Part shown: positions 2,725-10,479 of the stretch, piece after piece | Layout of the letters: the number at the start of each line of letters is the position of its first letter | How positions within the stretch are numbered: the first letter of the stretch is position 1 | DNA from: a virus | Taxonomy: Duplodnaviria; Heunggongvirae; Uroviricota; Caudoviricetes | Direction: 5' to 3' (one strand) | Virus record (IMG/VR): IMGVR_UViG_2802429244_000006 | Location: 1 to 10,791 of that record | Length of the DNA stretch: 10,791 bases | The notes under the pieces: generated by a model | Told to the model about the DNA's origin: nothing | Database searches by the model: none | Seen by the model: the letters and a program-made list of their open reading frames with translations, nothing else | Translations under genes and position numbers: made by a program

Positions 2725-2952
2725 TCACACCTCCGATTGCTTACCTTGCCCCTCTTCTGTGTGCGCTAAATCAGGATGGATATACGGGATACTTGGATCC
2801 AGATGGCAGAGAATAGCTACGTCCTCTGGAACACCTCTCGTTTTCCACTTTCCAACACCTTGACTGCCACGAGGCTTTCCTTTCTTTGGGAATCTGCGGC
2901 CAATAGCGGCATTGGTTTTAAATTGAGTTTTTAATATTTCATAAAGGGTCAT
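2725..2952 (-). CDS. Hypothetical small basic protein (75 aa) in the cro-equivalent position
   Basis: First ORF leftward of the divergent region next to the CI-like gene. Weak SD. No obvious helix-turn-helix. Lys/Arg-rich centre (GRRFPKKGKPRGSQGVGKWKTRG). Confidence 0.3.
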   Translation of the reverse strand: MTLYEILKTQFKTNAAIGRRFPKKGKPRGSQGVGKWKTRGVPEDVAILCHLDPSIPYIHPDLAHTEEGQGKQSEV

Positions 2953-3063
2953 TCTTTAGTCTCACACCGGATACTCTGTTATCCAAGAATGTTAAACGCG
3001 AGAATCCAAAGTATCAAGAGATTCTGTTACTTTAGTATCAGCAGCCATGAAAGGAGAAGAAAA
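2953..3063. promoter_or_regulatory. Divergent operator/promoter region (OR-like) between the cro-position gene and the CI-like repressor
   Basis: 111-bp gap between divergent genes. Candidate leftward sigma-70 promoter on the minus strand: TTGATA (3017-3012), 17-nt spacer, TAACAT (2994-2989). GTATCA motifs at 3011-3016 and 3035-3040; the 10-mer aaagtatcaa (3008-3017) recurs at 3747-3756. Confidence 0.4.
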
Positions 3064-3720
3064 ATGAAATCTTTAGGTGAACGCCTCATCAACGCACGAC
3101 AAAAAGCTGGGTTAACGCAAGATGCGTTGGCTAAAAAAGCAGGGGTCACCAGAGTTGCAATCAGTAAAGCCGAGCAAGGCCTTACAAAAAGTTTCAACGG
3201 TGACACCCTTTTTAAAGTCGCAGCTGCACTGCAGTGTTCACCGCAGTGGCTTCAGAGCGGAGATGAAAAAGATAAGCATTGGGAAAATAATGTTAAGAGC
3301 TGCCCACAGAGAGACACAGCACACTCTTACCCTGTAATTAACTGGGTTCAGGCAGGATTATTCGCAACTGCTGGTGATGACTACAACATGTATGATCAGG
3401 ATAACTGGAGGCATTCTGTAAAATACGCTGGTGAGAGGGGGTTCTGGCTGGAAGTGCACGGAGACTCAATGACTTCGCCCGTAGGAATAACATTTCCTGA
3501 AGGAATGTCGATCCTTGTCAACCCAGATAAAGAAGTTTTTTCAGGGTGTTACGTCATCGCCAGAAAAAAATCCACCAATGAAGCAACATTCAAAAAATAT
3601 ATTTCTGAAATGGGAAAGGCGTTTCTAAAGCCCCTTAATCCACAATATCCAATCATAGAAATGGACAATGATTGCGAAATAGTAGGTGTTGTAGTTGATG
3701 CCAGGTGGGATATTTTCTGA
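3064..3720 (+). CDS. cI: Lambda-CI-like repressor (N-terminal XRE-type HTH, C-terminal LexA/S24-like autoproteolytic domain), 218 aa
   Basis: ATG 3064 with AGGAG 7 nt upstream. HTH: LINARQKAGLTQDALAKKAGVTRVAISKAEQG. C-terminal GDSM (catalytic Ser), FKK (Lys) and LNPQYP closely resemble the lambda CI C-terminal domain. Candidate Ala-Gly cleavage sites in VQAGLFATAGDD. The ORF-track start at 2989 lacks an RBS. Confidence 0.9.
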   Translation: MKSLGERLINARQKAGLTQDALAKKAGVTRVAISKAEQGLTKSFNGDTLFKVAAALQCSPQWLQSGDEKDKHWENNVKSCPQRDTAHSYPVINWVQAGLFATAGDDYNMYDQDNWRHSVKYAGERGFWLEVHGDSMTSPVGITFPEGMSILVNPDKEVFSGCYVIARKKSTNEATFKKYISEMGKAFLKPLNPQYPIIEMDNDCEIVGVVVDARWDIF

Positions 3721-3823
3721 CCAGACTCAAAACACAAAAAGAAACAAAAGTATCAAAAATCACTTGCCACACCTTGATACCTTAGTTACCATAAAACAAA
3801 GTTCGTAACTGAGGTATCATCTC
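3721..3823 (+). promoter_or_regulatory. OL/pL-like operator-promoter region with an inverted repeat GTATCAA-N17-TTGATAC (3750..3780)
   Basis: Inverted repeat arms at 3750-3756 and 3774-3780. Candidate promoter TTGCCA (3764-3769), 17-nt spacer, TACCAT (3787-3792). Shares the aaagtatcaa 10-mer with the OR-like region. Confidence 0.4.
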
Positions 3824-4240
3824 ATGATCAATAAAGCTACAACTCTTGACTGTCTTGAAGAACTGAAAAACCTCGGCAGTCTCATTACACTAATAGCCAA
3901 AGCAACGCCAGATGCTACGCTCTCTGGCGATATCGAGTCATGCGCAGGACTGGCATGGGATATGACAAATAGCATATCCAGAAAGCTATCGTCAGCAATG
4001 CTTTTACAGAACAAAAATTCTGCAATCAACAACCGTCTTCGCACCCAACGCGAAGCCTGCGGCTTAACAACCGCCGAACTCGCCAGGCTGCTCGATCTCG
4101 ATGAAGAAATTATCATCCAGTGGGAGAGCGGAGAGTGTGAACCAACCATCAGTATGCTTATCCCACTGGCAAATATTCTTGGCTGCGATCCGATGTGGCT
4201 GTTAACCGGTAAACCAACAGCAGGAGATACTTGCGCATGA
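3824..4240 (+). CDS. Helix-turn-helix (XRE-family) DNA-binding protein, 138 aa, HTH in the C-terminal half
   Basis: ATG 3824 with GAGG 9 nt upstream. HTH-like segment LRTQREACGLTTAELARLLDLDEEIIIQWESGECEPTISMLIPLANILG. First gene after the CI-like repressor on the same strand. Confidence 0.65.
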   Translation: MINKATTLDCLEELKNLGSLITLIAKATPDATLSGDIESCAGLAWDMTNSISRKLSSAMLLQNKNSAINNRLRTQREACGLTTAELARLLDLDEEIIIQWESGECEPTISMLIPLANILGCDPMWLLTGKPTAGDTCA

Positions 4241-4602
4241 AAAAGTTCAAAAACATAACCGTTCTCCATGTTGATTACTTTGATTATACAAACCCGGACC
4301 TTCTCCCGGAGGTTGTAAAAGCAATAGATGTTGCCGATATAGTGATTAGAGGAAAGAGAATTGTCAAAAACAGGCTCGCATGCACTTCAGGAGCAATGAC
4401 AGAAACAACCTCACAGCAAGATAATTACGAAGGCATTTGTCTGGAGCCTGATTCATTTGCGGTAAATGTTTATCATTTATTGCATGCAACACAGGTATTA
4501 CATATGTCCAGTAATCACGAAACGAAAATACTCGGCAGCGAAATTCTGAATTTTGCATGTGAGTATGCAAAAGCTGCTGCCGAAAAAGAATTAGCGCAAT
4601 AA
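4237..4602 (+). CDS. Hypothetical protein (121 aa), translationally coupled to the upstream HTH gene
   Basis: ATG 4237 overlaps the upstream TGA (ATGA); AGGAG 10 nt upstream. No recognisable domain. AT-rich codon usage. Confidence 0.55.
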   Translation: MKKFKNITVLHVDYFDYTNPDLLPEVVKAIDVADIVIRGKRIVKNRLACTSGAMTETTSQQDNYEGICLEPDSFAVNVYHLLHATQVLHMSSNHETKILGSEILNFACEYAKAAAEKELAQ

Positions 4603-4800
4603 CAACAAATATGCTCTGAACGTTTATTACGGTTTTATCGCCGGGGATTGTTACAACCTTTATTCACAGATGGAACTCAGTTATGACTTTCCTGAAAAAT
4701 AAGGCATCGTATAAAACTGCCTGCCTCATTGCACAACATGGAGATTCTTATCTTCATATAGCCAACCTGTATTTGCGCAAAGCATATGGGAGATAAATAA

Positions 4801-4989
4801 ATGAAAGAAAAACAACAGAACATAACACATAAAAAAGTAAGAGTGTTGCTAACCATTGAAAATGGTGAAGTAATTTACTCAAAACATCTGTTGGATAATG
4901 AATTCGTTGGCTGCATGGATACATTTCTGTGGATGGCAAAAAGAGCTGGCTACACGATTATTCCACCAGCAAAGGAGCAAACATTATGA
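4801..4989 (+). CDS. Hypothetical small protein (62 aa)
   Basis: ATG 4801 with GGGAG 8 nt upstream; follows a 198-bp AT-rich intergenic region; stop overlaps the next start (ATGA). Confidence 0.5.
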   Translation: MKEKQQNITHKKVRVLLTIENGEVIYSKHLLDNEFVGCMDTFLWMAKRAGYTIIPPAKEQTL

Positions 4990-5567
4990 ATAATTCAGAG
5001 TTCCGACCAGAAGTTACGCCACATGGCATAAAAATTGGCAATACAACCATTGATTATGTTGAGGCCGTACAGCGACTTAATAATGGTGAATACGATTATC
5101 CAAATTCACACGGTTTAAGAATCCTTCAGTGTCTTGCAGAAGCCGATGATGCCAGATTACTGGGAAGATTTTCAGTCGATATGAAAGTTACTCAATGGCG
5201 CTGGCTGTATGTGACAACGTTTATAAATGAAGAAGAAGGCAAGAACGGCACCATTGATATCCCTAACGATAACGGAACTACAGATCGCGCAGTTATTTAT
5301 AAGGGGAAGCATGGTTGCATGAGTATATACCCAGGACCACTTCGCATTGCCCTGCAGAACCATGTCGAATGGGGATTTATTGAAAAATATGGCGAAGCTG
5401 AAGGCATGGGGCGAGTTCTGTTTCTCTATCAAAAAATGCTCATCGCAGATCCTGATAATGGTTTCATTGTCTCTGCTATGGGGCGCGAAGGGCTTGAACT
5501 CCTTCTGGATGAAATGATTCATGATCTGAATACTCATGGTATGCCAGAAGCACCAGTGACACATTAA
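4986..5567 (+). CDS. Hypothetical protein (193 aa)
   Basis: ATG 4986 with AGGAG (4973-4977) 8 nt upstream; ATGA overlap with the preceding ORF. The ORF-track start at 4929 is an upstream extension without an RBS. No recognisable domain. Confidence 0.6.
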   Translation: MNNSEFRPEVTPHGIKIGNTTIDYVEAVQRLNNGEYDYPNSHGLRILQCLAEADDARLLGRFSVDMKVTQWRWLYVTTFINEEEGKNGTIDIPNDNGTTDRAVIYKGKHGCMSIYPGPLRIALQNHVEWGFIEKYGEAEGMGRVLFLYQKMLIADPDNGFIVSAMGREGLELLLDEMIHDLNTHGMPEAPVTH

Positions 5568-5612
5568 ATATTAAGAAGAATATAATTCTTTCGTTTTTTA
5601 CTAACCGTTTAT

Positions 5613-5720
5613 ATGAAAAGCAACCGTGAATTAAACAGAGTAAAACTAATTTTAATCCTTGCCACAGTGCTGATACTAACTGAAATCATTATTCTCTTTA
5701 TTGCGCTGTCAGTCGGTTAA
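5613..5720 (+). CDS. Putative small hydrophobic peptide (35 aa, one predicted transmembrane helix)
   Basis: Not in the ORF track (under 60 aa). ATG 5613 to TAA 5718-5720: MKSNRELNRVKLILILATVLILTEIIILFIALSVG. No SD, so low confidence. Confidence 0.25.
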   Translation: MKSNRELNRVKLILILATVLILTEIIILFIALSVG

Positions 5721-5743
5721 AAATATCGGGATACCACAGACCA

Positions 5744-5932
5744 ATGAGACTGTATTTCACAATAGTAATTTTACTGGCAATTATCGCATGTATTTACGGA
5801 TTACTTGTTCCGTTCCTTATATCCATGAAGGATACGATAGCAGTTATTTCTGGCTTTGCACTGGCGTTTCTGACCCCGCCCTGCATTTATGCCATTTACA
5901 AGGGGCTTTCTTTCACTAAGGATAAAAGATGA
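5744..5932 (+). CDS. Small membrane protein (62 aa, two predicted transmembrane helices)
   Basis: ORF-track ORF; hydrophobic stretches IVILLAIIACIYGLLVPFLI and AVISGFALAFLTPPCIYAIY; stop overlaps the ATG of the SPFH gene (ATGA). Weak or absent SD; alternative in-frame ATG at 5825. Confidence 0.45.
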   Translation: MRLYFTIVILLAIIACIYGLLVPFLISMKDTIAVISGFALAFLTPPCIYAIYKGLSFTKDKR

Positions 5933-6756
5933 AAAAAATTATTTTTGCTTTAGCCATTGTTCTGCCGACTATTGGCCTTGTCGGTTGCGATCGCGTTGAA
6001 CCAGGTAATGTTGGCATCAAGGTAAATAAACTGGGCGACGACAAAGGCGTCGGTGAGGTGGTCGGTGTTGGTCGCTACTGGACTGGCTGGAATACTGAAG
6101 TTTATATCTTCCCCACCTTCAAGCAAATGAAGACCTACGATGAACCGTTCAGTTTCCAGATGAGTGACGGTACAACCATCGGCTATCACATTGGCGTGGC
6201 CTACAAAGTTGATCCATCCAAAGTTACCACGGTGTTTCAGACCTACCGCAAAGGCGTGGATGACATTACAGACACCGACCTGCGCCAGAAGATCGCCGAC
6301 GCACTCAACCGACTGGCCAGCAAAATGACCACTGACAAATTTATCGACGGCGGCAAGTCTGAGCTGCTGGATGAAGCTCTTAAAGACATTCAGGCAGAGA
6401 TGACACCTATCGGTATTCAGGTAATGAGCCTCTCATATGTGGGTAAGCCGGAGTACCCGCCAACCGTTATCGACAGCATTAATGCCAAAGTCACGGCGAA
6501 CCAGAAAACCCTACAACGCGAGCAGGAAGTTAAACAGCGCGAAGCGGAAGCCAACATGTTGCGCGCGGAAGCTGCCGGACAGGCTGATGCGATTCGCACA
6601 AAAGCCCAGGCTGAAGCCGATGCTATTCGTTTACGCGGTGAAGCTCTGCGCCAGAACCCCGGTGTTATGGAGCTGGAAGCCATCAATAAATGGAACGGCA
6701 CACTGCCGCAATACATGACCAGCGGTGCCAATACACCATTTATCCAGGTTAAATAA
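5929..6756 (+). CDS. SPFH/band-7 (prohibitin/HflK/C-like) domain lipoprotein, 275 aa
   Basis: ATG 5929 with AAGGA 6 nt upstream. Signal peptide with lipobox LVGC (Cys20). Central SPFH-like region and C-terminal Ala/Glu-rich coiled coil (QREAEANMLRAEAAGQADAIRTKAQAEADAIRLRGEA) typical of the family. Confidence 0.8.
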   Translation: MKKIIFALAIVLPTIGLVGCDRVEPGNVGIKVNKLGDDKGVGEVVGVGRYWTGWNTEVYIFPTFKQMKTYDEPFSFQMSDGTTIGYHIGVAYKVDPSKVTTVFQTYRKGVDDITDTDLRQKIADALNRLASKMTTDKFIDGGKSELLDEALKDIQAEMTPIGIQVMSLSYVGKPEYPPTVIDSINAKVTANQKTLQREQEVKQREAEANMLRAEAAGQADAIRTKAQAEADAIRLRGEALRQNPGVMELEAINKWNGTLPQYMTSGANTPFIQVK

Positions 6757-6796
6757 CTTATATGCCCGGCAGGCCGCCGGGCTAAGGGAAAAGCAG

Positions 6797-7156
6797 ATGA
6801 ACACCCATAATGCCCAACCGCAAATAATGAACTATGACCCGAATCTGACGTCATGCGGACGCATGGCAAAACAAACCGTTCGATTAACTTTCGGGTTATG
6901 GGAATACCGCGAAACATTCGAAGTTACTGTCGGCGGCAATCTGACCGGGCTGGATGTTATCAGTTGCGCTATTGAAAGCCTGTACGCAACGCTGCTTTAT
7001 GAAGAAGTCGAGGATGAGCGCGATATCATAGCCACCATTAATATCGGCGGACTGGAATGCAAGGATGAAAACCTGTCCGGAGAGCTCTGGCTTGCCGGGA
7101 TGCTTATCTCAGCAGAAATTATCAGTATTGAACCCGCAACAAACATACGGCTCTGA
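6797..7156 (+). CDS. Hypothetical protein (119 aa)
   Basis: ATG 6797 with AAGGGA 7 nt upstream; in frame with the longer ORF-track ORF 6725..7156, whose start would overlap the SPFH gene. No recognisable domain. Confidence 0.5.
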   Translation: MNTHNAQPQIMNYDPNLTSCGRMAKQTVRLTFGLWEYRETFEVTVGGNLTGLDVISCAIESLYATLLYEEVEDERDIIATINIGGLECKDENLSGELWLAGMLISAEIISIEPATNIRL

Positions 7157-7187
7157 AGTTCTCACTATTCAGAGAGCAGGAGAAAAA

Positions 7188-7430
7188 ATGTTCGCTTTGA
7201 TTAATCAGGGACAGCTGTATACCGACAGTGCCGGTTACCCGGTAAAAATTATTCGCTGCATAAATAACACTGTGTTGTACAGAAGAATGGATGGGCGAAC
7301 ACAGTCGGTAAAAATAAACGATTTTAATGAACTGTTTGAACGACTCGATCACCAGGAATACCGACAAATTCTGGCAGAAACAGAACAGGAAACTCATCTG
7401 AAAAAATTACGAGCCATGAAAAGGAAGTAA
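7188..7430 (+). CDS. Hypothetical small phage protein (80 aa)
   Basis: ATG 7188 with AGGAG 5 nt upstream; in frame within ORF-track ORF 7065..7430. Translation MFALINQGQLYTDSAGYPVKIIRCINNTVLYRRMDGRTQ... Confidence 0.55.
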   Translation: MFALINQGQLYTDSAGYPVKIIRCINNTVLYRRMDGRTQSVKINDFNELFERLDHQEYRQILAETEQETHLKKLRAMKRK

Positions 7431-7433
7431 AGA

Positions 7434-7580
7434 ATGAATAAAGCGTTTGAACTATGGGTACGCCAGCGTTACGGCAATCGCTATGACCTGACGCGAGATG
7501 TTGACGGTTTCTACTGTCGTGAAATTGTGAAACGAATGTTTGAAGTGTGGTGCCACTGCCGTGGGCTGAATGTTGTATGA
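7434..7580 (+). CDS. Hypothetical small protein (48 aa, Cys-containing)
   Basis: Not in the ORF track. ATG 7434 with AAGGAAG 6 nt upstream. Translation MNKAFELWVRQRYGNRYDLTRDVDGFYCREIVKRMFEVWCHCRGLNVV. Confidence 0.4.
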   Translation: MNKAFELWVRQRYGNRYDLTRDVDGFYCREIVKRMFEVWCHCRGLNVV

Positions 7581-7588
7581 GGTGAACT

Positions 7589-7798
7589 GTGGGGCTGGAT
7601 TGCGTACCTATATCAACCTACTGCCGCAACGCAGGAGAAACGGTTGATGCCGTTAACAAACGGATACAAAGAGGAATATGGAAAGAAGGGGTACATGTAT
7701 TAAAAGTCGACGGAGTTAAAGAACGTTGGGTCGACTTAATGGAGATTACAAAATGGGCAAGAAAGAACAAGGATCACTATCTCTCCCTAGAGGAGTAA
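7589..7798 (+). CDS. xis: Excisionase-like DNA-binding protein (69 aa)
   Basis: GTG start 7589 with GAGGTG just upstream; sits immediately 5' of the integrase and overlaps it by 46 nt, as xis does in lambdoid phages. Motif KEGVHVLKVDGVKERWVDL is consistent with small winged-helix excisionase-like proteins. Confidence 0.55.
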   Translation: MGLDCVPISTYCRNAGETVDAVNKRIQRGIWKEGVHVLKVDGVKERWVDLMEITKWARKNKDHYLSLEE

Positions 7799-8925
7799 CT
7801 ATTCGCCAGCATAAAACTGGTAGCACTCTGGTTATCACTTTTACATATAAAGGGGTTCTGTGTCGGGAGCCCCTCTCCAGAATGGAAGTAAACGCGCGCG
7901 GTGTGAAGTACGCTGAGCGTCTGCTGGGAGAAATAAAAAATCAGATTATCGATGGTACCTTCGAATATGCAAAATACTTCCCCAACTCCCAAAAGCTGGA
8001 GTTGTTCGGGGGAGTGAAAAAAAACAAAAATATAAAATCTTACCTGGATGAATACCTGATTATCTGCCAGAACCGTAACCTGTCACCATCGACAATTAGA
8101 GGTTATGAAAAATGCCTGTCGGCGCTGTCAGCATTGCATAAATTTCATGTATCAGAACTGACACCTGCAGTACTAAAAAACTGGATCGCCAACAGAAAAA
8201 CAAAACTGAAAACTATCCGCAATAATCTTTCATTCCTGCGCAGCGCCATAGATGAAGCGGTGACCGATGGTTTGTTAACAATAAATCCTGTCACGCTAGT
8301 CAGCGCCAGCCGGTATCACGTATTGGACAACACACCAGGCAGTGATGATTACGAGGTCGATCCTTTTACACCAGCGGAGACGGCAGCAATCTATGACGCC
8401 TGTCATTACCCGGAATGGCGAAATCTGTTTCGCTTTGCCTTTAATACAGGACTGCGCAGCTCAGAATTGTGCGCGTTGCGCTGGACGGATATAGACTTTA
8501 TCGGCAACACCGCGCATGTTCAGACTGCAAGCGTAGTCGGGGTAATCAAAAGCACCAAAACAAAAGCCGGCACCCGCAAAGTGCAACTGAACAGCGAAGC
8601 GCTGGCGGCTCTTCAGGCACAAAAGCCCTACACGGCGCTAAAGAGCGACTTCATATTCAGCGATCCGAAAACTCGCGCTCCTTGGGCAAACGCAGATGCG
8701 ATCCGAAAAAAAGCCTGGGTACCAACCCTTAAAAAAGCTGGTGTACGCTATCGCAATCCGTACCAGACACGCCACACGTTCGCCACTCGGCACATTAGCC
8801 AGGGCGTTAACCTGTTCTGGCTTGCTGGTCAGATGGGGCATAAAGGACCGGAAATGCTGTTCAGACATTACGGCTCTTACCTTGCAGAATACGATGGAAA
8901 AACGGCGATTTCTGCAACCCCGTAA
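7753..8925 (+). CDS. int: Lambda-type tyrosine integrase (site-specific recombinase), 390 aa from ATG 7753
   Basis: ATG 7753 with GGAG 8 nt upstream (ORF track begins at TTG 7726). N-terminal arm-binding-like region resembling lambda Int; C-terminal catalytic motifs (LRSSELCALRW..., RHTFATRHISQG..., GHKGPEMLFRHYGSY) with the conserved Arg/His/Arg/Tyr pattern. Confidence 0.9.
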   Translation: MGKKEQGSLSLPRGVTIRQHKTGSTLVITFTYKGVLCREPLSRMEVNARGVKYAERLLGEIKNQIIDGTFEYAKYFPNSQKLELFGGVKKNKNIKSYLDEYLIICQNRNLSPSTIRGYEKCLSALSALHKFHVSELTPAVLKNWIANRKTKLKTIRNNLSFLRSAIDEAVTDGLLTINPVTLVSASRYHVLDNTPGSDDYEVDPFTPAETAAIYDACHYPEWRNLFRFAFNTGLRSSELCALRWTDIDFIGNTAHVQTASVVGVIKSTKTKAGTRKVQLNSEALAALQAQKPYTALKSDFIFSDPKTRAPWANADAIRKKAWVPTLKKAGVRYRNPYQTRHTFATRHISQGVNLFWLAGQMGHKGPEMLFRHYGSYLAEYDGKTAISATP

Positions 8926-9057
8926 CGGCAAAATATTTCAAAATGTTGTACAGAATCAGGACGTTATCGGGACAACAATATGTACGTAAAATGCACATAA
9001 TTCATTGTTTGAAAAAATAAATCGTTCATATTCAATAAATTGGATTAATCACGATCA

Positions 9058-9084
9058 CGGGTTCAACTCCCGCCAGCTCCACCA
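9058..9084 (+). other. ssrA: 27-nt copy of the 3' end of tmRNA (ssrA): T-arm 3' side plus acceptor 3' strand ending CCA; interpreted as the att core at a prophage/island junction
   Basis: CGGGTTCAACTCCCGCCAGCTCCACCA matches the E. coli tmRNA 3' terminus as I recall it (...GCGGGTTCAACTCCCGCCAGCTCCACCA). Sequence immediately 5' (cacgatca) does not match ssrA, so this is a fragment, not a complete gene. Confidence 0.75.
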
Positions 9085-9118
9085 CTTTTTAGTTGTTTGA
9101 AGTACAATGAAGTCTACT

Positions 9119-9152
9119 AAGCCCGCACAGCACAAGCTCTGCGGGCTTTTTT
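9119..9152 (+). terminator. Rho-independent terminator
   Basis: GC-rich stem AAGCCCGCA / TGCGGGCTT followed by a run of six T (9147-9152); 35 nt downstream of the ssrA-like CCA end. Confidence 0.7.
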
Positions 9153-9249
9153 ACGTCTATTGTCGTCCAGTGAGAATTGCTGAGAACTATCACTTATGGC
9201 ACCCTGAATGGGACCCACTAAGAAGGGTCCAAAAACCGAGGGTCCCAAA

Positions 9250-10479
9250 ATGGCAAAAATCGCTAAGAAGCTCACTGACACTGAAATCAAAAGCACCAAG
9301 CCAGCCGACAAAGAAATCAACTTGTTTGACGGAGATGGTTTGATACTACGAATCGCTCCCCTCTCGAAAGGAGGAAAGAAGAATTGGTATTTCAGGTATG
9401 CAGTGCCAGTCAGTAAAAAAAGAACCAAAATGAGCCTTGGGACATATCCTCACCTTACACTGGCAAGAGCCAGAGCCTTACGAGATGAATACCTTTCCTT
9501 GCTTGCTAATGGCATTGATCCCCAAGTTCATAACAACGATAAAGCTAATGCCTTAAAGAATGCTACTGAACACACTCTCCAAGCCGTGGCAAGGAAATGG
9601 TTGGATGAGAAGGTAAAGACCTCAGGTATCTCACAAGACCATGCAGCAGACATCTGGCGCAGCTTAGAGAGAAATGTCTTTCCTGGCCTGGGTAATGTCC
9701 CTATCAATGAGATCCGACCTAAGCTCTTAAAACAACACCTTGATCCTATTGAGCAACGAGGCGTATTGGAAACTCTACGCCGCATCATTTCACGTCTGAA
9801 TGAAATCTTCCGGTGGGCAGCCACTGAAGAACTTATTGAGTTCAATCCGGCTGACAACCTTGGTCAAAGATTCAGTAAACCAAAAAAGCAAAATATGCCT
9901 GCCCTTCCCCCAAGCGAATTGCCAAGGTTTATGGAATCTTTGACGAATGCGTCAATCCGGCTGGAAACACGTATGCTAATTGAATGGCAATTGTTGACAT
10001 GGGTTCGTCCGGGTGAAGCCGTTCGCGCAAGGTGGTCTGATATTGATACAACCAACAACATTTGGAACATTCCTGCTGATTTTATGAAAATGAAAAAGCC
10101 TCACAAAGTTCCTTTGAGTAAAGAAGCTTTGCACATCCTTGAATTAATGAAATCAATAAGTGGGCATAGAGAATGGGTTTTCCCCAGCATTAAAGCGCCT
10201 CTTAATCATATGCATGAACAAACAGCCAACGCAGCTATTATCCGAATGGGGTTTGGAGGCGAACTTGTAGCTCACGGTATGCGTTCGATTGCAAGAACAG
10301 CGGCAGAGGCGTCTGGTAAGTTCAGAGCTGAAGTTCTTGAGGCAGCACTCGCCCACTCTAAAAAAGATGAAATTATCGCAGCATACAATCGTGCAGAATA
10401 TCTGATAGAACGACAGAGTTTGATGCAATGGTGGAGTGATTACGTTCAAACTCAAAGAGCTAAAGCTATCGCTGCTTGA
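9250..10479 (+). CDS. int: P4-type (IntA-like) tyrosine integrase, 409 aa from ATG 9250
   Basis: ATG 9250 with GAGGG 7 nt upstream. N-terminus MAKIAKKLTDTEIKSTKPADKEINLFDGDGLILRI fits the P4-integrase arm-binding N-terminal pattern. Conserved blocks DIWRSLER, GVLETLRR, KKQNMP, ARWSDID, HGMRSIART, EAALAH, AYNRAEYL, MQWW. The ORF-track start at 9208 is an upstream extension. Confidence 0.9.
   Translation: MAKIAKKLTDTEIKSTKPADKEINLFDGDGLILRIAPLSKGGKKNWYFRYAVPVSKKRTKMSLGTYPHLTLARARALRDEYLSLLANGIDPQVHNNDKANALKNATEHTLQAVARKWLDEKVKTSGISQDHAADIWRSLERNVFPGLGNVPINEIRPKLLKQHLDPIEQRGVLETLRRIISRLNEIFRWAATEELIEFNPADNLGQRFSKPKKQNMPALPPSELPRFMESLTNASIRLETRMLIEWQLLTWVRPGEAVRARWSDIDTTNNIWNIPADFMKMKKPHKVPLSKEALHILELMKSISGHREWVFPSIKAPLNHMHEQTANAAIIRMGFGGELVAHGMRSIARTAAEASGKFRAEVLEAALAHSKKDEIIAAYNRAEYLIERQSLMQWWSDYVQTQRAKAIAA

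Follow-up and report, generated by a model that had tools for sequence, protein, structure and literature searches.

The early-left region examined here has its closest well-described counterpart in phiP27, a complete 42.6-kb Stx2e-converting phage (NC_003356 / AJ298298; Recktenwald and Schmidt 2002). Smith et al. 2012 (PMC3430580) noted already that P27 is without N, cII and cIII; the full annotation of phiP27 lists neither SAP nor Exo, Gam or SSB, and a Rec module is absent throughout. Such phages form a published class. A Rec module is missing from 22% of lambdoid phages, and RecBCD aids the growth of one of them, LLS (Zheng 2025; PMC12315714); Rec-less lambdoid phages over-represent Chi (Bobay 2013; PMC3784561).

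The window analysed here, a single stretch of 10,791 nucleotides, contains ten small plus-strand ORFs (35-275 aa) between a cI-like repressor gene (3064-3720) and an xis-int module (7589-8925). Positions 2900-7583 are 96.9% identical to phiP27 genes L03-L11, and gene order is shared: cI, HTH L10, L08, L07, L06, SPFH L05, DUF5406 L04 and DUF4222 L03. Judged by sequence, the arm seen here is an early-left operon, preserved intact, from a phiP27-type E. coli prophage of which 10.8 kb is visible. The arm type and its lack of Rec, N and cIII genes are already known. We consider it very probable that the window holds the intact PL-type operon of a Rec-less, phiP27-type temperate phage, integrated at ssrA and probably using the host RecBCD-RecA pathway via Chi.

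Gene content of the early-left arm

HMM searches of all ORFs across 3824..7580 identified no standard early-left functions (Pfam, PHROGs, NCBIfam, PADLOC), and with a PDB sequence search added, none of the ten matched a recombinase, nuclease, SSB, RecBCD inhibitor, N, cIII or Kil. A first-pass annotation had described about ten genes of 35-275 aa without recombinase, nuclease or SSB signatures, and the profile and PDB searches bear this out. It had also called these genes ORFans, which does not hold: nine of the ten fall in PHROG phage families, and by that assignment they are not ORFans. Recognised in the arm are a regulator with an XRE-type HTH, a DUF5406 protein, a DUF4222 protein and an SPFH/Band-7 lipoprotein, the last coupled to a membrane partner of 62 aa.

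The arm recurs in 80 viral contigs and in Stx2a/Stx2d phages. The arm stays conserved across these 80 loci in company with different repressors and integrases. The operon's first gene (3824..4240, plus strand, as are all that follow; phiP27 L10) encodes a protein of 138 aa whose C-terminal part is an XRE-type HTH (HTH_3, 1.3e-9). It matches phrog_4739 (1e-83) and also phrog_4836, "CII-like regulator" (2e-39); BLASTP gives no similarity between it and lambda CII. Next come a 121-aa protein (4237..4602; phiP27 L08; phrog_5451, 1e-80), whose mechanical ORF call begins at a TTG at 4231 and for which Pfam, PADLOC and PDB searches are all without a match, and a 62-aa protein (4801..4989; phiP27 L07; phrog_340, 3e-24) found in 79 of 80 loci. 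The latter gene has a good Shine-Dalgarno sequence, GGGAG, and its stop overlaps the start of the 193-aa gene (ATGA); its product shows weak similarity to anti-repressor C-terminal regions in PHROGs. The 193-aa gene (4986..5567; phiP27 L06) is followed by a hydrophobic ORF of 35 aa (5613..5720; 49 of 80 loci) with no Pfam or PHROGs family match and no evident Shine-Dalgarno sequence. Compared with relatives this ORF has 4 synonymous and 6 nonsynonymous changes and is never interrupted; its coding status is doubtful. Beyond the membrane pair described below lie the DUF5406 gene (6797..7156, 119 aa; phiP27 L04), the DUF4222 gene (7188..7430, 80 aa; phiP27 L03; PF13973, 5.7e-16; phrog_285, 9e-33; 78 of 80 loci) and a 48-aa ORF (7434..7580; phrog_3871, 5e-36; 66 of 80 loci). 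The 48-aa ORF and the first gene of the membrane pair, tm62, are annotated in the window and carry no annotation in phiP27.

Six ORFs (121-, 62-, 193-, 35-, 119- and 48-aa) have no assigned function. One or more uncharacterised proteins, whether the 193-aa L06-like, DUF5406 or 121-aa L08-like protein or the small ORFs, might thus represent an unrecognised recombination or anti-RecBCD protein. The predicted structure of the 193-aa protein is a confident mixed alpha/beta model, and a fold search with this model and that of the DUF5406 protein, the two proteins so searched, found no known fold neighbour; Zheng et al. 2025 add that hidden functions in Rec-less phages are not unequivocally excludable (PMC12315714). 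We nevertheless regard a hidden function of this kind as very unlikely. The same fold search matched no recombination or takeover function, and Rad52/Redbeta-, RecT-, Erf-, Sak4-, OB-fold- and PD-(D/E)xK-like folds are absent from the two modelled proteins. The candidates are dispensable across relatives, with L06 present in 53 of 80 loci, DUF5406 in 65 and L08 in 62, and unrelated small genes in their place. Finally, the Chi enrichment of phiP27, presented below, is the hallmark of phages that leave RecBCD uninhibited (PMC3784561; PMC12315714).

Intactness, control region and attachment junction

Loss of recombination and takeover genes by a degenerate or satellite-like prophage was one interpretation offered by the first-pass annotation. 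In its favour are the absence of recognisable early-left functions from the arm, a visible extent of 10.8 kb only, and the tandem arrangement of the prophage and another integrase island at ssrA, a setting in which remnants accumulate. The gene set is also that of the complete phage phiP27. Set against phiP27 and three further relatives, no ORF shows a truncation or interruption; because all are intact, a degenerate or satellite element is not supported. The repressor, xis and int are likewise intact, and the SPFH gene is under purifying selection. The identical gene set occurs in complete Stx2a phages, of which LC567842 and LC567818 carry the arm together with a Q antiterminator and stx. The closest chromosomal relative is E. 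coli C311, where a complete prophage has the arm next to genes for replication, Q, lysis, terminase, portal and capsid. A phage that shares part of the block, ON416862, is viable: it was induced, isolated and shown to form stable K-12 lysogens (PMC9751135). Homologues of lambda exo, bet, gam, kil, cIII, N, ral and ea genes occur in none of the 80 related loci. Missing recombination genes are ordinary for the phiP27 type and not decay, and we judge degeneracy extremely improbable.

The repressor (3064..3720, plus strand; 218 aa from the ATG at 3064) matches Pfam Peptidase_S24 (1.3e-22), HTH_3 (1.3e-14) and phrog_4 (3e-53). Identity is 99.7% to phiP27 L11 and 34% to lambda cI (E 4e-42), and in the lambda alignment the VQAG cleavage site and the GDSM/FKK motifs line up. 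The 103-bp gap after it (3721..3823) is a putative OL/PL-like control region, assigned from consensus scans. A promoter-like site, TTGCCA-17-TACCAT (3764-3792, plus strand), has GTATCA/TGATAC half-sites around it (3750-3755, 3775-3780 and 3814-3819), and 3775-3789 pairs with 3805-3819 as an inverted repeat of 15 nt. GTATCA occurs 16 times in the window versus 4.2 expected, five of them within the 214 bp on the two sides of cI; the region has 10 promoter-like sites versus 12.4 by chance, which is no excess. The OR-like cI-cro intergenic region (2953..3063) lies outside the interval first annotated and is part of the same control circuit; its motifs are GTATCA (3011-3016, 3035-3040) and a palindrome, GGATAC...GTTATCC (2969-2984).

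The gene just before the operon encodes a homologue of lambda cI, equipped with a self-cleavage domain of the LexA type; this repressor probably shuts the promoter in 3721-3823 through the GTATCA/TGATAC operator half-sites, also present on the cro side. SOS-induced cleavage of the repressor would then yield one transcript of roughly 5 kb encoding, in order, the XRE-type regulator, small phage-family proteins, the coupled tm62-SPFH pair, DUF5406, DUF4222, the 48-aa protein, Xis and Int; any roles of the individual small proteins are likewise putative. A scan of 3824-7580 showed no terminator-like site on the plus strand, in keeping with the missing N antiterminator.

The excisionase (7589..7798, plus strand, 69 aa; phrog_2917, 1.5e-40; annotated as excisionase in C311) has no homology at the DNA level to phiP27 L02. 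The tyrosine integrase (7726..8925, plus strand) matches Arm-DNA-bind_2 and Phage_integrase in Pfam (1.8e-19 and 2.7e-19) and phrog_1; its start is uncertain, either TTG 7726 or ATG 7753. The whole phiP27 xis-int module is unrelated in DNA to that of the window, and the difference in integrase is in keeping with different attachment sites, ssrA for this prophage versus yecE for phiP27. The sequence CACGGGTTCAACTCCCGCCAGCTCCACCA at 9056..9084 (plus strand) is presumably the 3' end of ssrA (tmRNA), named partly from the known E. coli ssrA sequence and partly from a partial Rfam tmRNA match (9039-9084, E 0.018). A terminator-like hairpin downstream (about 9121-9152; scan match 9134-9148) is read as the ssrA terminator, and 9056..9084 as a candidate attR-like junction of prophage and chromosome.

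The tm62-SPFH membrane pair

The one residual curiosity of the arm is an uncharacterised pair of membrane genes. The first, tm62 (5744..5932, plus strand), encodes 62 aa with two predicted membrane helices and matches phrog_1130, "membrane protein", in the moron category (2.5e-23). Its stop overlaps the SPFH start (ATGA, 5929-5932), it precedes SPFH in 79 of 80 loci, and its synonymous to nonsynonymous changes versus relatives range from 3:0 to 3:2. The second (5929..6756, plus strand; phiP27 L05) encodes a 275-aa SPFH/Band-7 lipoprotein (Band_7, 3e-31; phrog_200, 3e-114). With 53 synonymous and 6 nonsynonymous codon changes versus relatives, it is clearly under purifying selection. A lipobox, LVGC, lies at residues 17-20 and is followed by Asp at +2, so by the +2 rule the protein is predicted to reside in the inner membrane, facing the periplasm.

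Among bacterial SPFH proteins, HflK and HflC share the SPFH/Band-7 domain followed by a coiled-coil-like segment, which is Ala/Glu/Gln-rich in the window protein. HflKC SPFH domains sit at the periplasmic face of the inner membrane, matching the place predicted here. The best solved relative is HflK (7vhq_E, E 4e-4), although matches to HflC/HflK models are weak (23-26 bits vs cutoffs of 134-159). The window protein would be anchored by its lipobox cysteine, whereas HflK/C have an N-terminal membrane helix; its partner is the 62-aa two-helix protein, with no NfeD match reported by the Pfam search.

The first-pass annotation had alternatively suggested that accessory cargo replaced the usual genes. 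Cargo has some merit: tm62 and SPFH, perhaps with DUF5406 and DUF4222, could be a horizontally acquired moron cassette without a lytic role that serves the lysogen, for instance through superinfection exclusion or host regulation. G+C rises to 50-53% across 6001-7000, over the tm62-SPFH pair, versus 37-44% in the flanks; PHROGs places tm62 in its moron or host-takeover class; and the SPFH gene is found in other phage types and, by itself, on plasmids of ~94-112 kb. One member of the DUF4222 family is RgdR (ECs1581, OI-51 prophage, EHEC O157:H7), a prophage regulator of host virulence genes that acts on type III secretion (PMC10877973). The window protein is likened to RgdR by domain family, being likewise small, prophage-encoded and almost all DUF4222 domain, but reads RMDGR and does not have the RGD tripeptide of RgdR. 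Against a cassette, these genes are co-oriented and tightly packed within a repressor-controlled operon, with no separate promoter detected upstream of tm62 and no flanking terminator; PADLOC defence models give no match, and the literature holds no experimental data on any phage SPFH lipoprotein. We hold the cassette possible but rather unlikely; it is compatible with an intact phiP27-type operon. Of replacement of a Rec module there is no sign; the entire phiP27-type lineage is without one, and phiP27 is rich in Chi.

Chi sites and comparison with known phages

Chi occurs 17 times in phiP27, where Markov models of order 1, 3 and 5 expect 1.6, 4.9 and 6.5, and not at all in lambda. Twelve of the 17 sites are on the top strand, and on the virion map eight of these twelve lie in the right half; the 12:5 orientation is not significant alone (p = 0.14). 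The window has three sites versus about 0.2 expected from composition, in 10.8 kb of prophage seen. One, GCTGGTGG at 4963..4970 (minus strand), falls on the top strand when phiP27 is read in virion orientation and equals the phiP27 Chi at 4266. These counts suggest that phiP27-type phages probably rely on host RecBCD via abundant Chi. The phage type is without a Red/Gam-like module by design, with Chi in phiP27 mostly on the strand and map half met by RecBCD entering from a free cos end; concatemer formation and protection from RecBCD would then probably be left to the host RecBCD-RecA pathway, as published for the Rec-less, Chi-rich class.

Like the lambda PL operon, the arm lies beside a cI homologue in the same place and direction, ends in xis-int, is probably transcribed early under repressor control and includes several small genes that look non-essential, comparable with the ea/orf genes of lambda. 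Lambda has N, ral, ea10, cIII, kil, gam, bet and exo, whereas the window arm has none; the first operon gene encodes an HTH protein here and N in lambda, and the distance from control region to xis is about 3.8 kb versus about 6.5 kb. With HK97-like heads and sheathed tails, phiP27-type virions are not lambda-like.

On our analysis phiP27 matches the published class with no Rec module and high Chi (Bobay 2013; Zheng 2025), although the main text of Zheng 2025 does not name it. The LLS type shares the absence of SAP, exonuclease, SSB and RecBCD inhibitor from the early-left operon. The left operons of LLS and ST64B carry yfbR, yfdQ and yfdP homologues, a gene content unrelated to that of the window. 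In LLS and P1, Chi is concentrated toward the right end, as in the virion map of phiP27, where Chi is the commonest octamer.

Gene content and control of the early-left operon

The immunity region in the window is divergent and includes a repressor gene (3064-3720, +) for a protein of 218 aa with HTH_3 and Peptidase_S24 domains by Pfam. A gap of 103 bp on the 3' side of this gene is followed by ten tightly packed, co-oriented ORFs. These encode, all on the + strand, proteins of 138 aa (3824-4240; XRE-type HTH by Pfam), 121 aa (4237-4602), 62 aa (4801-4989), 193 aa (4986-5567), 35 aa (5613-5720), 62 aa (5744-5932; tm62, with two predicted membrane helices), 275 aa (5929-6756; Band_7/SPFH by Pfam), 119 aa (6797-7156; DUF5406 by Pfam), 80 aa (7188-7430; DUF4222 by Pfam) and 48 aa (7434-7580). 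An excisionase gene (7589-7798, +) and a tyrosine integrase gene (7726-8925, +) follow. The first-pass annotation gave the number, sizes and layout of the early-left ORFs accurately. Its description of them as ORFans was wrong: all ten except the 35-aa ORF, which has no PHROG family, belong to PHROG families with E-values from 1e-23 to 1e-114, and four carry Pfam domains. The DUF4222 domain is that of RgdR, which is encoded by a prophage and regulates type III secretion in EHEC (PMC10877973). Literature searches returned no functional study of DUF5406. The 138-aa HTH protein carries the PHROG label "CII-like regulator", which is kept as a family annotation only, because BLASTP gave no alignment to lambda CII.

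One stretch inside the operon, the gap of 198 bp between the 121-aa and 62-aa genes (4603-4800), is low in G+C; Rfam matched nothing in it, and neither a promoter nor a terminator was called there. The annotation of the Stx2e phage phiP27 places a 59-aa ORF, L09, on the opposite strand here, at window positions 4677-4856 (-), overlapping the gap.

Over its full length the repressor aligns with lambda cI (34% identity, E 4e-42), with the VQAG self-cleavage site and the Ser and Lys motifs in register. The hexamer GTATCA occurs in 16 copies in the window versus 4.2 expected, five of them within the 214 bp that the two intergenic regions flanking the repressor make up together. On the left side, a promoter-like TTGCCA-17-TACCAT (3764-3792) is flanked by half-sites at 3750-3755, 3775-3780 and 3814-3819 and by an inverted repeat of 15 nt. 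From these motifs, the two intergenic regions may be read as OL/PL and OR. No terminator-like site was found on the + strand within 3824-7580, consistent with the operon having no N antiterminator.

Profile searches of the ORFs in 3824-7580 against Pfam, PHROGs, PADLOC and NCBIfam matched no strand-annealing protein, exonuclease, SSB, RecBCD inhibitor, N, cIII or Kil. The absence of recognisable recombinase, nuclease and SSB genes, noticed by eye in the first-pass annotation, is thus borne out, with no standard early-left function found among these ORFs. A single-strand annealing protein of the Redbeta/RecT, Erf, Sak or Sak4 type was missing by Pfam, PHROG and NCBIfam, and neither of the two modelled proteins (193-aa and DUF5406) has a Rad52-like or RecA-like fold. 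For a partner exonuclease of the lambda Exo or RecE type, or an HNH enzyme, the same three collections gave no nuclease family match in the operon. A RecBCD inhibitor of the Gam, Abc2 or Mu Gam type found no match in Pfam, PHROG, PADLOC, NCBIfam or 80 related loci; one of the small ORFs might conceivably still hide such an inhibitor. The 193-aa, DUF5406 and 121-aa proteins, searched by sequence against the PDB, had chance-level matches only (E >= 0.27), and a Foldseek search of the 193-aa model against BFVD gave nothing below E 0.07. In PADLOC-DB v2, no defence model was matched by tm62, SPFH, the 193-aa protein (phiP27 L06), DUF5406 or DUF4222, and the sole matches were those of the HTH domain of the 138-aa protein to the HTH part of the RmrA and capH models. 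Since a strand-annealing protein, an exonuclease and a RecBCD inhibitor were each sought and not found, the operon is not of the kind that bears a Rec module.

Several features were observed on the early-right side. Strong Rfam matches to the C4 antisense RNA (RF01695; 875-962, -; 84.4 bits, gathering score 45) and the isrK Hfq-binding RNA (RF01394; 987-1063, -; 56.4 bits, gathering score 50) fall between Rha-like and Ash-like coding parts, so that a mechanically called ORF of 493 aa (458-1939) is really Rha, RNA genes and Ash. The Rha-RNA-Ash stretch is a P1/P7 immI-like antisense control module of the early-right arm. An extra GTATCA copy (1940-1945, -) lies directly upstream of the Rha start codon (1939), a placement suggestive of possible control of Rha, too, by the repressor or by a different regulator. 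Between cro and Rha, two long ORFs overlap almost fully on opposite strands (1905-2711, +, 268 aa; 1977-2723, -, 248 aa). The + strand is annotated in phiP27 (L13), and the - strand by RefSeq in E. coli C311, the strain with the closest chromosomal relative of the arm. Neither member of the pair has a significant Pfam match, the - strand ORF has no PHROG match, and relatives vary at only three sites, each of them a third codon position in the + frame.

A phiP27-type left arm in complete relatives

Window positions 2900-7583 match genes L03-L11 of phiP27 at 96.9% identity with synteny kept; identities for individual genes range from 92.6 to 99.7%, with no internal stops or frameshifts. Judged by synteny and identity, the arm is classed as a phiP27-type left arm. 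Relative to phiP27, novelty is confined to the xis-int module and to ssrA as the attachment site.

The sequence CACGGGTTCAACTCCCGCCAGCTCCACCA at 9056-9084 is what we take to be the 3' end of ssrA (tmRNA), from an Rfam search in E-value mode and from reading of the sequence. ARAGORN called no tRNA or tmRNA gene in the window. On one side of the ssrA fragment is the prophage integrase, and on the other a second integrase (9208-10479) of the P4/CP4-57 type, with Arm-DNA-bind_3, Phage_int_M and Phage_integrase domains. A terminator-like hairpin 3' of the fragment, taken for the ssrA terminator, lies with it between the two integrases, both within 9039-9152; a partial match to IsrM falls at 9075-9152. 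Because the ssrA 3' end and the hairpin separate the two integrases, the arrangement indicates that the ssrA site is occupied in tandem by a phiP27-type prophage and a CP4-57-like island.

The arm is widespread. DNA of 3824-7580 was matched in 946 of 5426 complete E. coli genomes, in 79 of these over at least 80% of its length, and complete Stx2a phages integrated at yecE carry the arm in this compact form (cI, HTH regulator, small genes, SPFH, DUF5406, small ORF, xis, int). The 80 most similar viral loci keep the arm, with varying repressors and integrases: 19 of them share this cI, and integrase matches average only about 28% identity. All 80 lack homologues of lambda exo, bet, gam, kil, cIII, N, ral and ea within 8 kb upstream. 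Some variant loci lack the 193-aa gene or DUF5406 and have other small phage-family genes in their place; the replacements are phrog_1737, phrog_1886, an anti-repressor and phrog_3007, with no strand-annealing protein, exonuclease or Gam among them. The slot 3' of SPFH is a place where cargo is exchanged. Some relatives have an anti-repressor (phrog_1726) and a 189-aa phrog_3007 protein in place of DUF5406 (9618-10187 in locus L058 and 8872-9621 in locus L056); the latter protein is labelled "RusA-like Holliday junction resolvase" and shows weak similarity to DNA polymerase processivity factors.

The window stops within the early-right region, and the replication, Q, lysis, terminase and head modules lie beyond its 10.8 kb. 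In C311 the arm adjoins DnaC-/DnaB-type replication genes, Q, holins and endolysin, the P27-family small terminase, portal and HK97-type capsid genes, and the adjoining phiP27-type modules are present in both C311 and phiP27. These relatives bear on the suggestion, made when the missing functions were first noticed, that the element is a degenerate or satellite-like prophage. Comparison with four relatives revealed no pseudogenised or truncated gene, that is, no internal stop or frameshift, and the repressor, xis and int are all intact, so the machinery of lysogeny and excision is present. Relatives that carry the arm, C311 and phiP27, have complete late regions. Phage ON416862, which shares part of the block, has been isolated after induction and lysogenised K-12 strains stably (PMC9751135). 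With ORFs intact, relatives complete and a related phage viable, the degenerate or satellite reading is unsupported. That the Red/Gam/N/cIII set is missing where immunity and integration are lambda-like is no evidence of decay; a left arm free of Rec genes is the norm in a common and viable lineage to which Shiga-toxin phages belong. As a practical matter, such arms should not be flagged as defective prophages.

The tm62-SPFH gene pair

The translationally coupled genes for tm62 and the SPFH protein overlap by ATGA at 5929-5932, and tm62 lies 5' of SPFH in 79 of the 80 most similar loci. Relatives of the SPFH protein are encoded on 404 IMG/VR contigs. In the SPFH gene, codon changes against the more distant Stx2a relatives are 53 synonymous versus 6 nonsynonymous, which clearly points to purifying selection. 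The SPFH lipobox, LVGC, is followed by Asp at +2, and by the +2 rule the protein is predicted to be an inner-membrane lipoprotein that faces the periplasm. HflK is the only solved relative by sequence (E 4e-4). Scores of 25.9 bits versus a cutoff of 134.4 for HflC, and 23.1 versus 159.4 for HflK, place the protein outside both families; it passes only the general SPFH/Band_7 domain model (109 bits versus a cutoff of 23.6).

The G+C content is 50-53% over the tm62-SPFH stretch versus 37-44% in the flanks. The SPFH gene alone (about 5983-6722) is found at 75-86% identity at 241 places on E. coli plasmids; among the matches listed these plasmids are 94-112 kb in size and could be phage-plasmids, and one Punavirus record is among the phage matches listed. 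The gene passes from one phage type to another separately from the other arm genes. Replacement of the region by accessory cargo, the other explanation offered at first for the missing functions, finds some support for the tm62-SPFH cassette, from its distinct G+C and the occurrence of its gene alone on plasmids; no defence model was matched.

Literature searches found no functional characterisation of a phage SPFH lipoprotein, and one paper states that its role in phage genomes "remains unclear". We consider it rather improbable, as a specific proposal, that the pair is an early membrane module of the phage, forming a periplasm-facing, HflKC-like SPFH assembly at the inner membrane that would either modulate FtsH/HflKC, in the place of cIII in the lysis-lysogeny decision, or block the entry of DNA from superinfecting phage. 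The pair is well conserved and unstudied, and is present in hundreds of E. coli prophages.

Chi sites and comparison with known systems

The complete phiP27 genome has 17 Chi octamers (GCTGGTGG), which makes Chi its commonest octamer, rank 1. Expected counts are 1.6, 4.9 and 6.5 under Markov models of order 1, 3 and 5, and the maximum in 200 simulations was 14; lambda has 0 Chi sites. Twelve of the 17 are on the top strand (12:5, p = 0.14), and 8 of those 12 map to the right half of the virion map, on the stretch that runs from the replication genes to cos. The window has three Chi sites, where composition predicts about 0.2; one, at 4963-4970, falls within the operon. No Rec module was found anywhere in the complete phiP27 genome, judged by annotation only; a GIY-YIG nuclease and an HNH endonuclease are encoded elsewhere in it, neither of Rec-module type. 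Smith et al. (2012) noted the lack of N, cII and cIII in phiP27 (PMC3430580).

A class of phages with no Rec module and high Chi content has been described (Bobay 2013; Zheng 2025, PMC12315714). Bobay et al. found Chi to be over-represented in lambdoid phages without Rec genes (PMC3784561). In the Enterobacteriales lambdoid panel of Zheng et al. 2025, 22% had no Rec module, with high Chi density there, and growth of phage LLS was aided by RecBCD (PMC12315714). By two of three features, the arm appears to fit this class. A recognisable Rec-module gene is absent from the window and, by annotation, from phiP27, and Chi over-representation with top-strand and right-part skew was counted on the phiP27 genome, the prophage in the window being visible in part only. 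The third feature of the class is growth aided by host RecBCD and RecA; by the published signature of such phages, host RecBCD-RecA would be used in place of phage-encoded recombinases. The missing early-left functions are a real observation with an ordinary meaning that the literature already explains, and the result agrees with a trade-off, already established, of recombinase genes against Chi sites. The arm is like the lambda PL operon in its position, its control and its xis-int terminus.
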